From NCBI RefSeq assembly GCF_041886205.1, contig NZ_CP169029.1: a stretch of 64,000 nt of DNA. The stretch is one strand, 5' to 3'. Source of the DNA: Escherichia coli. GTDB taxonomy: Bacteria > Pseudomonadota > Gammaproteobacteria > Enterobacterales > Enterobacteriaceae. Shown here in pieces: positions 26,301 to 38,252 of the stretch. The notes below the pieces were generated by a model, which was not told where the DNA came from, ran no database searches, and saw only the letters and a list, made by a program, of their open reading frames with translations. Positions within the stretch are counted from its first letter, which is position 1; each line of letters begins with the position of its first letter. Made by a program: the position numbers and the translations under genes.

Positions 26301-26381
26301 ATTTTGCTCCAAACGACATCGGCAATTGGGCAAATTCTAACCCAATAATAATCGCCATTATCTAATACCCTGGTATTTCGT

Positions 26382-27821
<1,440 letters not shown>

Positions 27822-32212: not shown

Positions 32213-33009
32213 CAATAAACAAAACTCACAGGTGCAGCACCCGCCGGATGCGGCAAAATACCCATCGGGATGCCATAAATCATTTCGAGGGTTTCGCCGC
32301 GCATAATTTCCGCAGGCGTTCCCTGAGCAATCATTTCACCACCGCGCAGGGCGACCAGATAATCACAGTAGCGTGCCGCCATATTGATATCGTGCAGCAC
32401 GGCAATGACCGTCAGGCCACGTTTCTGACTTAAACGGTGCACCAGCGCCAGCACATCAACCTGGTGGGCGATATCCAGCGCCGAAGTCGGTTCGTCGAGC
32501 AACAGACAACGGCTATCCTGCGCCACCAGCATGGCGATCCACGCCCGTTGACGTTCGCCGCCAGAGAGACTATCGACCAGCCGATGCGCCAGCGGTTTTA
32601 AGCCAACCAGCGAGATAGCTTCCTCGACTTTTTCGCGATCTGCCGCACCAAAGCGCCCCAGCGCGCCATGCCATGGGTAACGACCAATCGCTACCAGTTC
32701 ACGCACGGTCATCCCTTCTGCCGGAGGAAGCTGCTGCGGCAAATAAGCCACTTTGCGGGCAAACGCTTTGCTGCTCCAGCTTTCCAGCGGTTGGGCATCA
32801 AGAAGAATCTCCCCTTCCGACGGCGGCTGATGACGGCCAAGCATTTTGAGCAGAGTGGATTTACCAGAACCGTTGTGACCAATCAGACCGGTCACTTTCC
32901 CGGCAGGAAAGGTTAACGACAGCGGATGCAAAAGCGTGCGCCCGGGCACACGAAAGGAGATATTACGCAGTGCAAAAGTGGTATCGGAATGATTCGTGTA
33001 TTCCTGCAT
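32212..33009 (-). CDS. fhuC: ferric hydroxamate ABC transporter ATPase FhuC (265 aa)
   Basis: Start at MQEYTNHSDTTF (ATG 33009); Walker A GHNGSGKST, ABC signature LSGGERQR, Walker B LLLDEP. Confidence 0.9.
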   Translation of the reverse strand: MQEYTNHSDTTFALRNISFRVPGRTLLHPLSLTFPAGKVTGLIGHNGSGKSTLLKMLGRHQPPSEGEILLDAQPLESWSSKAFARKVAYLPQQLPPAEGMTVRELVAIGRYPWHGALGRFGAADREKVEEAISLVGLKPLAHRLVDSLSGGERQRAWIAMLVAQDSRCLLLDEPTSALDIAHQVDVLALVHRLSQKRGLTVIAVLHDINMAARYCDYLVALRGGEMIAQGTPAEIMRGETLEMIYGIPMGILPHPAGAAPVSFVY

Positions 33010-33059
33010 AACAGCCAACTTGTGAAATGGGCACGGAAATCCGTGCCCCAAAAGAGAAA

Positions 33060-35303
33060 TTAGAAACGGAAGGTTGCGGTTGCAACGACCTGACGTTCTG
33101 CGCCCCAGAAGCAGCCATAAGTGTTAAAGCAGCTGGCGACGTATTCACGATCGAACAGGTTGTTGACATGCAGCGCCACGTTGGAGCCCGCCATGCCGAC
33201 TCGCGCCAGATCATAACGCACTAACGCATCCACGACCGTATAACTTCCCACTTTAAAGGAGTTAGCCGGATCACCATAGCTGGAGCCAGTATAACGACCA
33301 CCGGTGCCCAGCGTCAGACCTGAAAGTGGACCGTCAAAGAAGGTATAGTCAGCCCACAGCGAAGCCATGTGTTTTGGCACCTGTGCAGGCGTATTTCCTT
33401 TGTAGTTGGTGTCAGTGGTGTATTCCGCGTCGGTGTAGGTGTAAGAACCGACTACGTTAACACTCGCCGATAGTGCCGCTTTCGCTTCCAGCTCTACGCC
33501 ACGCGCACGAATCTCACCGCCTTCAACCGAGAAGAAGGAACCCTCAGGGTCCGCCATCAGGTTGTTGGTTTTAGTGAGATTATACACGGCACCAGTAACT
33601 ACAATCGGACGATCTTCCGGTACATATTTCACACCGACTTCATACTGCTTACCCTTAGACGGTGCGAAAATATTACCATCCTTCCCAACTTGCGAAGAAG
33701 GTTCAAACGATTCGCTATAGCTAAAGTAAGGTGTTACGCCATTATCAAACAGGTAGTTAACACCACCACGCCAGGTAAACTGTTTGTCATCACGTTTATC
33801 GGTCGTCCCGGCAACGCGGTTAAGAGATTCTTGATCTGCCCAGTCATAACGACCGCCCAGGGTTACCAGCACTTTATCCCACTGCGCCTGATCCTGAACA
33901 TAAACGCCCGTTTGTTTCTGTTTATTCAGAATGCGGTAAGGGCCGGAGTTTGCCGGATCTTTGGCATTGAAGTCGAAATCGGTATTCACCGGATTGTACA
34001 GATTGAGCAGTGGCACAGAGTCGTCGTAACCAAACCAGGCGTTGATGTCATTACGCATACGCATAAAGTCGACACCGGTCAACAGGGTGTGGTCGATATC
34101 GCCAGTGGCAAACTTGCTCTGCAACTGGGTATCAACGGAGAAGTTTTGCAGCTTCTCATCATCAACGACGTATTTACGTGCCAGATAATGGCCTTTATCC
34201 GCTGGCGCTAATGCCGCACACTGTTTGCTGTAAGCATTCGCCGGATCGGAGCAGACGCCGTAACCATAAACGCTGTTTTGCGAGGTTTTGTTTTCAGCAA
34301 AGCGCAGGTTCTGACGCACAGTAAAGGTGTCGTTAAATTCGTGATCGAAGCTGTAGCCGACCATCTTCTCATTACGAGAATAGGTGTTGTTCTTCGCCCC
34401 TTCATTAAAGTCTGTCGGCAGACGCTTACCGTTCGGCAGCGGCTCAACGGTTCCCTCTTTCGGCAACCAGCCGTAATAACCGGTTTCCGGCTCGTTCTGG
34501 AAGTAAGAAAGGAAGGTGAAATTGGTTTTATCATCCGGACGCCAGGTGAACGCCGGTGCAATAGCATAACGCTGCTCTTCTGACCCTTTCTGCTGGGCAT
34601 TGGCAGAACGCGCAAGACCGGTCAGGCGATAAGAGTAAACGCCGTCATCATCCAGCGCATCGCTAAAGTCAAAACCAGTCTGGAACAGGCTGTCAGTACC
34701 GGCTTTAAACTGAACTTCTTTGAGCGGTTCGGTGGTCGGACGCTTGCTGACCATATTCAACAGACCGCCAGGACTACTTTTACCGTAAAGCACGGAAACC
34801 GGGCCACGCATAATTTCAGCGCGTTCCAGCATATACGGATCAATGACCGCATCGTTATAGAAGTTGCCCTGCAACTTCAGGCCATTCAGATAGTTATTCT
34901 GGCTTTGGCCTTCTGCCGCAAAACCGCGAATGATCAGGTGGTCATAGGTGTTGGATGCGCCACGCGTACCAACAGAGACACCCGGCGTGTAGCTAAGCGC
35001 TTCTTTTACCGACTTCGGCTGATGCAGCGCCATCTCTTCGGCGGTCACAACAGAAATAGACTGTGGCACTTTTTGAATCGGCGTATCGGTTTTAGTGCCG
35101 GTAGCTGACTGTCGCGCCGCAATAGTTGCAGCAGGCCCCCATGCGCTTTCTTGCGGCGCAGGTGCAGCGGTAACGGTGATAGTGTCTTCTTTCGGTTCAA
35201 CCGCTGCCTGTGCATAAACAGACATGCCGCTAACCGCTGTGGCTACTACAACTGCGATTTTACGCAGTGAGTGTTTTGGCTGAGCAGTTTTGGAACGCGC
35301 CAT
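33060..35303 (-). CDS. fhuA: TonB-dependent ferrichrome outer membrane receptor FhuA (747 aa)
   Basis: Signal peptide, TonB box (DTITVTA), plug and 22-strand barrel, C-terminal ...VATATFRF. Confidence 0.95.
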   Translation of the reverse strand: MARSKTAQPKHSLRKIAVVVATAVSGMSVYAQAAVEPKEDTITVTAAPAPQESAWGPAATIAARQSATGTKTDTPIQKVPQSISVVTAEEMALHQPKSVKEALSYTPGVSVGTRGASNTYDHLIIRGFAAEGQSQNNYLNGLKLQGNFYNDAVIDPYMLERAEIMRGPVSVLYGKSSPGGLLNMVSKRPTTEPLKEVQFKAGTDSLFQTGFDFSDALDDDGVYSYRLTGLARSANAQQKGSEEQRYAIAPAFTWRPDDKTNFTFLSYFQNEPETGYYGWLPKEGTVEPLPNGKRLPTDFNEGAKNNTYSRNEKMVGYSFDHEFNDTFTVRQNLRFAENKTSQNSVYGYGVCSDPANAYSKQCAALAPADKGHYLARKYVVDDEKLQNFSVDTQLQSKFATGDIDHTLLTGVDFMRMRNDINAWFGYDDSVPLLNLYNPVNTDFDFNAKDPANSGPYRILNKQKQTGVYVQDQAQWDKVLVTLGGRYDWADQESLNRVAGTTDKRDDKQFTWRGGVNYLFDNGVTPYFSYSESFEPSSQVGKDGNIFAPSKGKQYEVGVKYVPEDRPIVVTGAVYNLTKTNNLMADPEGSFFSVEGGEIRARGVELEAKAALSASVNVVGSYTYTDAEYTTDTNYKGNTPAQVPKHMASLWADYTFFDGPLSGLTLGTGGRYTGSSYGDPANSFKVGSYTVVDALVRYDLARVGMAGSNVALHVNNLFDREYVASCFNTYGCFWGAERQVVATATFRF

Positions 35304-35341
35304 TGGTATATCTCTGATGTAAAGTGAATGATAACGTAAAC

Positions 35342-35376
35342 GAGAATGATTATTATAAAGATAAGATAATATTCGA
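35342..35376 (-). promoter_or_regulatory. Fur box(es) in fhuA promoter region
   Basis: gagaatgattattataaagataagataatatt: overlapping matches (about 14/19) to GATAATGATAATCATTATC consensus upstream of fhuA. Confidence 0.6.
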
Positions 35377-35522
35377 AACGCTGGCGGGTTCGCAAGCGGT
35401 ACGCAATCTGAGCGTTCCTGAAGGGTTAATAAACAACCAGATGAAAAGAAAGGGTTAATACTTTGGGTGGGATGTTATTTTACCGGATGGCAACTCGCCA
35501 TCCGGTATTTCACGCTTAGACG

Positions 35523-38057
35523 TTAATTACTACCAAACATATCTTTAATCCAACCGGCTACACCGTCGCTGTCTTTCTGCTCTTGCTGAGCAGGTTGCTG
35601 TTGCGGCTGTTGCTGCGGCTGAGAAGACTGATCAAACGGATTGCTTGACGGCTGCTGCTGCATCTCACTCTGCTGGCACAGCGATTGCGGATCGCTGGTC
35701 CAGACCGGCAAGACACGCATGCCACCGCTGCAAACAAAGTTGCCGTCGTAGTCCACGCCCATATCTGCAATATCTTCTGGCGGAACAAGATTCAGCGGTG
35801 TTGGCGTCTGGTTAGCCAGATAACGCTGATAAATCGACATTGCCCCGCTGGCTCCATACAGTTTGGTCGGCTGGTTGTTATCACGGCCTACCCAGGTGAT
35901 GGTCACCGTGCTGCCGTCAATGCCCGCAAACCAGGTATCTACGTTATTGTTAGTAGTCCCTGTTTTCCCTGCCAGATGCAGGTTCGGGTATTTCGCCCCA
36001 AGCTGACGACCCGTACCGCGTTGTACCACCTGCTGCATGGTCCATAGTGTCAGATACGCCGCCTGCGCCGGAACAGCGCGTTCCGCCTGCGGGAAGCTCT
36101 GATACAGCACTTTGCCATCTTCCGCGATTACCGAACGCAGCGCAGAAAGCGGTGCACGGTTACCGCCGCTGGCGATGGTCTGGAATGCCTGCGCCACTTC
36201 GATTGGCGTTAAGTTCAACGCCCCCAGCAGCATCGCCGGAACCGGATGCAGCTGATCTTTCGGCACGCCCAGTTTGATCCAGGTCTCCGTAACCGCAGGC
36301 AGCCCCAGTGCCATCCCCAGATTTACCGTCGGCACGTTCATCGAACGGGTCAACGCATCCACCAGCATCACTCTGCCACTTTCGCTATAACGACGATCAT
36401 CGTTCTGCGGTGACCAGACCTGGCCATTCGGCTGACGCAGCGCGATTGGCGCATCCGCAATCCACGTGTTCAGGCGATAGATTTTCGGCTGGCTTAAGGC
36501 AGTCAGATAAGTCGCTGGTTTTGCAAGGGAACCAATCGAACGACGCGCCTGCATCGCACGGTTGTAGCCCGCAAACTGCGGCTCAGAACCTCCGACCATC
36601 GCACGAACTTCACCACTAAAGCGGTCGACGACCACAATCGCGGTTTCCAGATCGCTCAGCTTACGCTGTTTCTTCAGTGCCGGAATGCCTTCCACGGCGG
36701 CTTTTTCTGCCGCGTCCTGGGCCACCGAGTCAAAGGTAGTGAAGATCTTCACGCCGGACAGATCTTTTACCTTATCGCCTAATTTCTCCTGCAACTCCTG
36801 ACGCACCAGTTGCATAAAGGCTGGCTGTGGAGAGATTACCCCACCGCGCGGCTGTACGCCCAGAGGACGCGCGCTGAGCATTTCATACAGTTCACCATCG
36901 ATAATCTGCTGTTGTTGTAGCAAACGCAGCACCAGATTACGTCGCTCCAGCGCCAGTTTCGGGTTACGCCACGGGTTGTAGATGGACGCCCCTTTCACCA
37001 TGCCAACTAACAGCGCCTGCTGGTCAAGGCTCAACTCTTCTACCGGGCGACCAAAGTAGTACAGGCTCGCCAGCGGGAAGCCACGAATTTCGTTGTCGCC
37101 GCTCTGACCGAGATACACCTCATTCATATACAGCTCAAGAATGCGATCTTTGCTGTAACGCGCATCCATGATCAACGCCATATAGGCTTCGTTCGCTTTA
37201 CGCCAGTAAGAGCGCTCGCTGGAGAGGAACAGGTTTTTCACCAGCTGTTGCGTCAGCGTACTCGCACCCTGCACCGTGCGACCTGCGGTCAGGTTTGCCA
37301 GCACCGCACGTCCGATGGAGTAGAGACTGATTCCATCATGCTCGTAGAAATGGCGGTCTTCTGTCGCCAGCAAAGTATCCACCAGCAAATCCGGGAAACC
37401 ACTGCGCGGCACAAACAAACGCTGCTCACCGTTTGGTGAGGAGATCATGGTGATCAGGCGCGGATCAAGACGGAAGAAACCGAACTGACGGTTGTTCTCC
37501 ATATTGACGATCGTCGCCAGATGATCGCCATCAAAGGTCAGACGCGCGCGCACCTGTCCTTCTTTACTGTCCGGGAAATCAAACGGACGGCGAATCATCT
37601 CAATGCTGTTGGCCTGCACGGTAAATTCGCCAGGACGGGTCATTTTTGACACCTGACGATACTGGGTTGCCTCCAGCAGCTTCACCATCTCGTTCTTGCT
37701 GATGGTCATGTCTGGCTCAAGGTTGACCATTCGGCCATAAACTGCCGCAGGCAGTTGCCAGACCTTGCCATCAATACGGCTGCGAATTTTTTGATCGAGA
37801 TAAACGCCGTAAATGGCGATCAGCACGGCAAAAACGATAGCCAGTTTTAACAGCAGCCATAGCCAGCCGCGTTTGCCACGAGGCTTACGCCCTTTGCCTT
37901 TGCCCTTACCTTTGCGCGGCATCGGTTCTTCATCCTCATAGTCATCATAATCGTCGTAATCATCGTCATCTTCGTAACGACGACGGCTTACCTTTTGTTT
38001 GACCGGACGCGTCGGTTTCCCTTTGCGTCCAATTGGCTCGCGGTCATTCCCGGCCAT
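35523..38057 (-). CDS. mrcB: penicillin-binding protein 1B (bifunctional glycosyltransferase/transpeptidase), 844 aa
   Basis: Start at [14 protein letters not shown] (ATG 38057, GGAG RBS); acidic [15 protein letters not shown] tract, glycosyltransferase and transpeptidase motifs. Confidence 0.9.
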
Positions 38058-38153
38058 GCTTTTTCTCCGCAATATTCAGGCGCAAAAGCCCGATTTTCTG
38101 TTCTTCTGTTACAAGACAGAAGAAGATATCTCTCAAAATTTGTGCTCGATCGG

Positions 38154-38242
38154 TCCCCTCTCCCTTAAGGGAGAGGGTTAGGGTGAGGGTGAACGTGCGC
38201 GCTGATGCCCTCACCCCGGCCCTCTCCCACAGGGAGAGGGAG
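38154..38242. repeat. GC-rich palindromic extragenic repeat cluster (boxC/REP-like)
   Basis: Three adjacent dyads: cctctccc-ttaa-gggagagg, gggtgaggg...ccctcaccc, ccctctccc-acag-ggagaggg in the mrcB-hrpB spacer. Confidence 0.6.
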
Positions 38243-38252
38243 AAAACCAACC

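Follow-up and report, generated by a model that had tools for sequence, protein, structure and literature searches.

The mrcB-fhuA spacer of Escherichia coli: an established Fur-controlled promoter and a probable protective 3′ stem-loop that resembles a REP relic

Intrinsic termination by E. coli RNA polymerase requires a U-tract, which provides the weak rU-dA hybrid that permits release. REPs protect the mRNA that precedes them from 3′ exonucleases, and together with Rho they can attenuate transcription. For Rho-dependent transcripts of E. coli, Dar and Sorek (2018, NAR 46:6797) found that the steady-state 3′ ends lie directly after stable stem-loops, which are low in U, have no upstream A-tract, and are followed by RNA in which C exceeds G. 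In their reading, the stem-loops protect the message against PNPase and RNase II, and the rut site lies just beyond.

In a study by Chen et al. (2007; PMC2189734), clustered Fur sites were reported to follow one another at intervals of exactly 3 or 6 bases. The fhuA cluster was described in the same paper as three overlapping sites over 31 bp, and it was gel-shifted with 150 nM Fur. Its strongest site (19.5 bits) is at position 167439 of K-12, 45 nt before the ATG, which is 35348 in the coordinates used here. The intergenic promoter between mrcB and fhuA has been given as TTGCGA-18-TATTAT (Shimada et al., 2014; PMC3946193), and a PfhuA-lacZ fusion was found to be repressed by Fur (Beauchene et al., 2015; PMC4676285).

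Here, the mrcB-fhuA spacer is analysed within a 64-kb stretch of E. coli DNA, referred to as the window. Both genes are on the minus strand, separated by a spacer of 219 bp (35304..35522), and the gene identities and the spacer length are the same as in E. coli K-12. According to the RefSeq annotation of identical DNA, the mrcB gene (PBP1b) extends from 35523 to approximately 38057, with its TAA stop codon at 35523..35525, and fhuA occupies 33060..35303, with its ATG at 35301..35303. The corresponding K-12 positions are 167,264 for the end of mrcB and 167,484 for the start of fhuA; the K-12 coordinate is 202,787 minus the window position. The best explanation for the spacer is that it holds two independent and ordinary elements, a Fur-controlled fhuA promoter and a hairpin at the 3′ end of mrcB. 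The hairpin is best read as a REP-derived 3′-terminal protective stem-loop, probably of the Rho-dependent type. We give this reading, both parts taken jointly, a probability of roughly 0.55.

The two hexamers of the fhuA promoter were located by a promoter scan. On the minus strand, the -35 hexamer TTGCGA is at 35390..35395 and the -10 hexamer TATTAT at 35366..35371, with 18 bp between them, and this is the promoter listed by Shimada et al. (2014). The -35 region is conserved across genera as CTTGCnA. No 19-mer anywhere in the window matches the Fur consensus GATAATGATAATCATTATC with three or fewer mismatches, and a mismatch profile and shuffled sequences were therefore used instead of a strict match. 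The top match in the spacer is CTTTATAATAATCATTCTC (35360..35342, minus strand), which agrees with the consensus at 14 of 19 positions and is the joint best in the whole 64 kb. Additional matches are found at 35336, 35339, 35345 and 35348, in steps of 3 or 6 bp. Together these overlapping 19-mers form a cluster on the minus strand at 35325..35360, which adjoins the -10 hexamer on its downstream side and spans the predicted transcription start together with the first part of the 5′ UTR. Dinucleotide-preserving shuffles, either of the whole spacer or of its A+T-rich 80 nt, gave P = 0.017-0.025 for the best match and P = 0.005-0.007 for the number of matches. From sequence statistics alone, the cluster is thus suggestive and modestly significant.

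The comparison with other species adds to this. The 32-nt block ATAATAATCATTCTCGTTTACGTTATCATTCA, corresponding to 35356..35325, hardly varies among about 55 enterobacterial species. Most columns of this block (ATAATAATnATTcTCGTTTACGTTATCATTCA) are at least 90% conserved in the 56 loci compared, which come from about 20 genera of enterobacteria, and the -35 and -10 hexamers are also nearly invariant there. The distance from the best Fur 19-mer to the fhuA ATG in these 56 loci is 50-63 nt, and in nearly all of them it is 55-60 nt. This conservation across genera argues for a functional Fur core at the predicted start of transcription and in the early 5′ UTR.

A preliminary description of this DNA, made from the sequence, had placed overlapping Fur matches at 35342..35376. 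The cluster is real, as judged by the 14/19 match and the shuffles, but the range needs adjusting. The Fur string quoted there is 32 nt long (35342-35373) and not 35, the conserved core at 35356..35325 lies about 15 bp nearer to fhuA, and positions 35361-35376 consist of the -10 hexamer and promoter spacer. The same description proposed that fhuACDB is repressed by iron, in agreement with the gel shift of Chen et al. (2007) and the PfhuA-lacZ fusion of Beauchene et al. (2015). Repression of fhuACDB by Fur and iron through 35325..35360 is established, published knowledge. The arrangement is that of a sigma-70 fhuACDB promoter followed by overlapping Fur sites over the predicted start and early 5′ UTR. 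When iron is sufficient, Fe2+-Fur occupies these sites and blocks RNA polymerase, as the literature shows.

At the mrcB end of the spacer, a perfect 10-bp dyad, accggatggc-aactc-gccatccggt, had been reported at 35482..35506. It is indeed present, and one extra T-A pair lengthens it to a stem of 11 bp. Read as minus-strand RNA, this is the hairpin UACCGGAUGGC-GAGUU-GCCAUCCGGUA (35481..35507), which has a perfect 11-bp stem (arms at 35481-35491 and 35497-35507) and a 5-nt loop, and begins 15 nt past the mrcB stop codon. The free energy of the stem-loop is -20.1 kcal/mol. A 66-nt context folds with -23.2 kcal/mol, compared with -10.4 +/- 2.8 for shuffled sequences (z = -4.6), and none of 200 dinucleotide shuffles folded as well. 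An Rfam scan of 33000-38200 with E <= 1 returned no RNA family, either at the hairpin or elsewhere in that region. The K-12 record has no annotated feature in the spacer, which is uninformative because the same record leaves the repeats in the hrpB-mrcB spacer unannotated too. The repeats in that spacer are of the Box C type and not REPs.

On the transcribed strand, the tail 3′ of the stem is AAAAUAACAUC. It has no U-tract, in agreement with the preliminary description, and there is a single U in the first 8 nt (AAAUAACAUCCCACC). Tails were scored with our own implementation of a d'Aubenton-Carafa-type sum, in which an all-T tail gives 7.15 and a tail with no T gives the floor value of 1.5. 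The mrcB tail scores 1.68, or 2.35 when only the GC-closed core is taken as the stem. A simple terminator scan called no terminator at this hairpin. It therefore has the G+C-rich stem of an intrinsic terminator and clearly lacks the U-tract, and because of this lack the hairpin alone probably does not release the polymerase.

The same position was then compared in other Enterobacteriaceae, using the C-terminal half of MrcB to recover 80 loci, with one genome per species. In nearly all of the 80 species, the mrcB stop codon is followed at 0-25 nt by a strong hairpin, with energies of -13 to -30 kcal/mol; in a few, the strongest hairpin begins as late as about 70 nt past it. In most of these loci fhuA follows 215-320 nt downstream. 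The stem sequences at the mrcB end are unrelated between genera. The tail score is at least 3.5, indicating a canonical U-tail, in 49 of the 80 species (median 4.6), and Enterobacter, Klebsiella, Raoultella, Kosakonia, Kluyvera, Lelliottia and many Citrobacter have an A-tract, a G+C stem and 5-9 U at this place. Given that hairpins occupy this position in nearly all of the 80 species, we infer that there is selection for a structure that ends the mrcB unit. The position of the E. coli hairpin likewise supports the view that it marks the end of the mrcB unit and sets it apart from the fhuA promoter. The earlier suggestion that the hairpin terminates or pauses mrcB transcription, and so insulates fhuA, therefore stands as far as its location at the end of the unit is concerned, but not for a self-acting mechanism, where the U-tract test fails.

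The hairpin may instead be a weak, non-canonical intrinsic terminator or pause site that acts on the polymerase without Rho, which is what the preliminary description had in mind. Its stem is perfect and very stable (-20 kcal/mol), it stands in the same place as the canonical terminators of 49 related species, and a short A-rich stretch, GAAAUA, lies just upstream of it. On the other hand, its tail score is near the minimum, and the second hairpin allele found in Escherichia, described below, likewise has no U-tract. On balance we consider this mechanism unlikely, although it deserves to be kept in mind.

An indication of where the hairpin came from is provided by Salmonella enterica (arizonae and diarizonae) and Citrobacter amalonaticus, which have a BIME, composed of two inverted REPs, at the mrcB-end position. 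The E. coli 3′ arm with its flank, GCCATCCGGTAAAATAACAT, can be aligned with the terminal part of the second REP together with the flank of that REP (GCCATCCGGTAATG...; GCCATCCGGCAAAT...AAATAACATT). The alignment is short, and it fits two derivations, one in which the second REP was shortened and one in which the outer arms of the pair were brought together by a collapse between them. The E. coli 5′ arm, CCGGATGGCG, is one mismatch away from REP arms. The hairpin is not a REP by definition, being 27 nt long, perfect, flanked by AAAT...AAAA, and devoid of GTAG/CTAC. It also shows no REP-like dispersal, with a 53-nt query finding at most three places per E. coli genome. Elsewhere in the 64-kb window there are essentially no REPs. 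The mrcB hairpin looks like a shortened and perfected REP/BIME relic, possibly one that has been domesticated.

Variation within Escherichia was analysed in an alignment of ten spacers, comprising the most divergent among 4,849 hairpin-bearing E. coli genomes together with three other Escherichia species. The 22 stem columns are all invariant, while three of the five loop columns and 50 of the 192 other spacer columns do (Fisher P = 0.003 for stem against loop, and 0.002 for stem against the other spacer columns). The loop is found as GAGTT, GAGTA, GAGCA, GAGCT or GAATT. Since the stem never changes within Escherichia, it shows no covariation, and the structural support consequently comes down to invariance and to replacement by other hairpins at this position. 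Hairpins in the other genera lack homology to the Escherichia stem, which precludes a covariation test across genera.

The hairpin is absent from about 570 of 5,426 complete E. coli genomes (approximately 10%). In the hairpin-less genomes examined (L001, L002 and L004), a four-gene chaperone-usher fimbrial operon sits between mrcB and the fhuA promoter, and the fhuA promoter and Fur box are retained. In L004, the one genome examined at the mrcB side, mrcB is followed by another perfect 10-bp hairpin, CGCTCTCCGC-TTAT-GCGGAGAGCG, with no U-tract, and the same alternative hairpin is found in E. albertii. The DNA after it (in E. albertii L008) is AT-rich and not C-rich, with 4 C and 6 G. Counting in favour the z value against shuffles, the invariance of the stem and the replacement hairpins, we consider that the hairpin is probably a selected RNA structure.

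These observations also bear on a simpler view, that the hairpin is a functionless, decaying REP/BIME relic, and that mrcB transcription stops elsewhere or reads through. Such a relic would account for the REP pair at the orthologous position in Salmonella and C. amalonaticus, and the hairpin is evidently dispensable because it is missing in about 10% of E. coli genomes. It would also agree with Adams et al. (2021), whose Term-seq and bicyclomycin tables contain no 3′ end or Rho region at 167.2-167.5 kb of K-12; mrcB is weakly expressed, and for this reason the blank is regarded here as uninformative and not as a negative result. However, a decaying relic would be expected to have acquired mismatches in the stem, and yet it is the loop and flanks that vary and not the stem. 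In addition, the palindrome is perfect and its pairing is better than that of real REPs, the hairpin-less genome examined at this spot has another perfect hairpin there, and every genus has some hairpin. A relic that has lost all function is therefore a doubtful explanation, which we rate as decidedly unlikely.

The palindrome has a second copy in E. coli, TACCGGATGGC-GAGT-GCCATCCGGTA, which takes up the 37-bp spacer that separates two convergent genes, ygiD and ygiC, and lies 5-6 nt from the stop codon of each. In three alleles of this copy the 10-bp core is invariant, and the loop and the 11th pair vary. E. coli-type metagenome contigs with the palindrome show it in the mrcB and ygiD/ygiC contexts only. 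A metagenome scan with the 10-bp palindrome returned about 45 mrcB-fhuA contigs and about 17 ygiD/ygiC contigs, and the rest were from unrelated organisms, where many of the matches are ordinary A-stem-T terminators. The stem alone thus recurs by chance in a very large database. A large dispersed family of hairpins was considered and ruled out, on account of the few places per E. coli genome and the unrelated nature of the other metagenome matches.

The pair of palindromes could be taken further, as an undescribed two-member element, with a common 10-bp core and GAGT(T) loop, that is kept by selection because one particular ligand recognises it, such as an RNA-binding protein or an sRNA co-regulating message stability. 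Alternatively, it could be a conditional terminator that couples mrcB read-through to iron-independent expression of fhuA. We think either proposal highly unlikely. A further thought is that a dimeric protein binds the palindrome as DNA, since it is a perfect 11-bp inverted repeat and nearly the same sequence occurs at two unlinked loci. The spacer between the arms is however 5 nt at one locus and 4 nt at the other, the central bases vary freely, other genera substitute unrelated hairpins that are mostly plain terminators, and the location is at gene 3′ ends and not at promoters; a DNA site of this kind is extremely improbable.

The closeness of both copies to stop codons brings to mind an effect on translation, in which the hairpin stalls the terminating ribosome and lowers the output of MrcB by trans-translation, as REPs near stop codons do. 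The mrcB stem begins 15 nt after the stop codon, and the ygiD/ygiC copy is closer still, at 5-6 nt from both stop codons. The distance over which REPs down-regulate in this way is said to have been defined by Liang, Rudd and Deutscher in 2015, and 15 nt is reportedly at the edge of their range. But a gap of 15 nt puts the stem at or past the ribosome footprint, and the distance is not fixed in other genera, where hairpins are found at 0-25 nt. Ribosome stalling is accordingly a most improbable role for the mrcB hairpin.

The hairpin may also be read on the opposite strand. There, UUUCACGCUU comes after the stem and gives a tail score of 3.61, where 2.5 is the usual cut-off, and there is a promoter-like match on the plus strand at 35328-35356. 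The hairpin could on this basis be an intrinsic terminator for antisense transcripts that arise near the fhuA promoter, sparing mrcB from them. We know of no antisense transcript at mrcB-fhuA. The T-run is polymorphic within E. coli (ATTTCACG, ATGTCACG, ATATCACG), no T-run accompanies the alternative Escherichia hairpin on the plus strand, and the plus-strand promoter is only a 9/12 match to the consensus in DNA that is A+T-rich. These points leave a plus-strand terminator as very improbable.

The 78 nt after the hairpin on the minus strand (35403..35480) form a C-rich, G-poor untranslated tract, a candidate rut region. Its base counts are 21 C to 9 G overall, and 12 C to 1 G in the first 40 nt. 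Set against every 78-nt stretch of the 64 kb, it falls in the bottom 0.4% for G count and in the top 0.5% for C/(G+1). The GC skew reaches 0.86, with a C content of only 27%. The tract has stop codons in every frame and no start context. Within it there is an 11-nt direct repeat, TATTAACCCTT, on the minus strand. Its first copy, at 35450..35460, belongs to a block conserved in Escherichia, Salmonella and Citrobacter, and its second, at 35421..35431, is the box TTCTTAAnCCCT that is conserved across genera upstream of the fhuA -35. C exceeds G in the tract in 54 of the 56 species loci, and the excess is equally marked in genera that have a canonical mrcB terminator. The tract cannot therefore be tied specifically to a hairpin that lacks a U-tract, and it may be a conserved fail-safe, or part of the fhuA promoter or upstream region.

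Because the mrcB hairpin has the anatomy described by Dar and Sorek (2018), we propose a sequence of events of the Rho type. RNA polymerase would pass the hairpin and enter about 80 nt of untranslated C-rich, G-poor RNA. Rho would load on this tract, leading to termination before or within the fhuA promoter region, and 3′-to-5′ exonucleases would then shorten the transcript as far as the base of the hairpin, by which the mrcB message would be shielded. The net effect would be to keep constitutive mrcB transcription out of the iron-regulated fhuA operon. A preprint on metagenome terminators has no entry for mrcB or fhuA, and a literature search on mrcB with terminators or Rho-dependent termination found nothing relevant.

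The importance of these observations beyond annotation is small. The Fur half is already published, and the hairpin is a further, unremarkable example of the known class of U-less 3′ stem-loops, in this case probably Rho-associated and REP-derived. The mrcB unit of E. coli probably has a Rho-type end, and most relatives have a classic terminator at the same spot, so that the mrcB end is a clear case in nature of terminators being exchanged while their position stays the same. There is also a practical aspect: where the spacer is engineered or deleted, as in work on fhuA as a phage receptor or in mrcB constructs, altered mrcB mRNA stability and Fur-independent read-through into fhuA may be expected.

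The spacer can finally be set against the systems that it most resembles. The Fur cluster is of the kind found at the iron-uptake promoters of E. coli (fepA-fes, fhuF, cir and tonB; Chen et al., 2007), including Escolar-type GATAAT arrays. It shares with them the overlapping sites in 3/6-bp steps, the overlap with the -10/+1 region of a sigma-70 promoter, the gel shift by Fur, and derepression in fur mutants or low iron. Nothing of substance differs, apart from the modest 14/19 agreement of the best 19-mer with the classical consensus, and a conserved core that lies mostly downstream of the -10, over +1 and the 5′ UTR, and not over the -35/-10.

The hairpin can be compared with three known systems. 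With the canonical intrinsic terminators of the related genera it has in common its position (0-25 nt from the stop codon), its stem energy and the fhuA promoter as a neighbour, whereas those terminators have A-tracts, 5-9 U and tail scores of 3.5-6.4; the Escherichia hairpins have neither tract, and the stems are unrelated. With REPs and BIMEs it shares the arms CCGGATGGCG / GCCATCCGG and an extragenic site just past a stop codon, and by position and flank it is orthologous to the two-REP BIME of Salmonella and C. amalonaticus. REPs are however about 35 nt long, with an internal mismatch, GTAG/CTAC and hundreds of copies, whereas the hairpin is 27 nt long and perfect, lacks GTAG/CTAC, and is found at two loci. 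The third system is that of the protective stem-loops of Dar and Sorek (2018), which have in common with the mrcB hairpin a stable stem near the stop codon, little U, no real A-tract, and an untranslated tract with C over G. The mrcB hairpin differs from them in being known from its sequence anatomy, and in having a C-rich tract that is also present in relatives with an intrinsic terminator.

The hairpin is missing from about 570 of 5,426 complete E. coli genomes. In all three of the hairpin-less genomes that were examined (loci L001, L002 and L004), mrcB and fhuA are separated by a chaperone-usher fimbrial operon, which has four genes encoding a fimbrial protein, a chaperone, an usher and a second fimbrial protein (4985-10450 in L004). 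The segment that it replaces, corresponding to window 35382-35522, comprises the hairpin and a part of the spacer that varies in extent, and the fhuA -10 and Fur box are retained beside the operon in all three. The mrcB side was checked in L004 only; there mrcB is followed by a different perfect hairpin that also has no U-tract, CGCTCTCCGC-TTAT-GCGGAGAGCG, and the same hairpin is found in E. albertii (L008).

A second copy of the hairpin, essentially the same as that between mrcB and fhuA, occurs outside the window at an unlinked E. coli locus, the spacer between ygiD and ygiC (L003, 1505-1530; TACCGGATGGC-GAGT-GCCATCCGGTA). These two genes are convergent, and the copy fills the 37-bp gap that separates their stop codons. 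It was found in 3,915 genomes. In three alleles of it the 10-bp core is unchanged, and the loop is either GAGT or GAAT.

As to mrcB itself, the mechanically called reading frame (window 35523-38072) starts at a TTG at 38072; the annotated K-12 start (164,730) is the ATG at window 38057. PBP-1Bgamma is the product of an internal start of the gene. Upstream of mrcB, in the hrpB-mrcB spacer, there are two Box C-like palindromes on the minus strand (CCCTCTCCCTGTGGGAGAGGGCCGGGGTGAGGGC and its partner, window 38150-38250), and two Enterobacter species (L057, L062) have similar Box C-type hairpins 3' of the gene. The window also holds further near-consensus Fur-like 19-mers, with 5-6 mismatches, at 13308-13332, 26344-26362 and 27578-27596; these are candidate sites by sequence match, and one such 19-mer is the palindromic GAGAATCATTCTG around the start of the map gene (K-12 about 189.47 kb).

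At the mrcB-fhuA loci of relatives (L011-L084), a short inverted repeat, CCCCT...AGGGG, is present in most of the other genera (for example L023 and L041). It lies close to the fhuA -35, about 20-45 nt upstream of it, at a place equivalent to window about 35400-35425. The Leclercia version (L041) is CCCC/GGGG, apparently a compensatory change. E. coli does not have the inverted repeat, and the sequence there is AACCCTTCAGGAACGC. Within the C-rich tract, also upstream of the fhuA -35, E. coli has an exact 11-nt direct repeat on the minus strand, TATTAACCCTT, with copies 29 nt apart at window 35421-35431 and 35450-35460. Salmonella, Citrobacter and Enterobacter spacers carry two or three TTAACCC-type boxes at similar spacing. 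These boxes and the TATTAACCCTT repeat could be rut elements, or binding sites for some factor.
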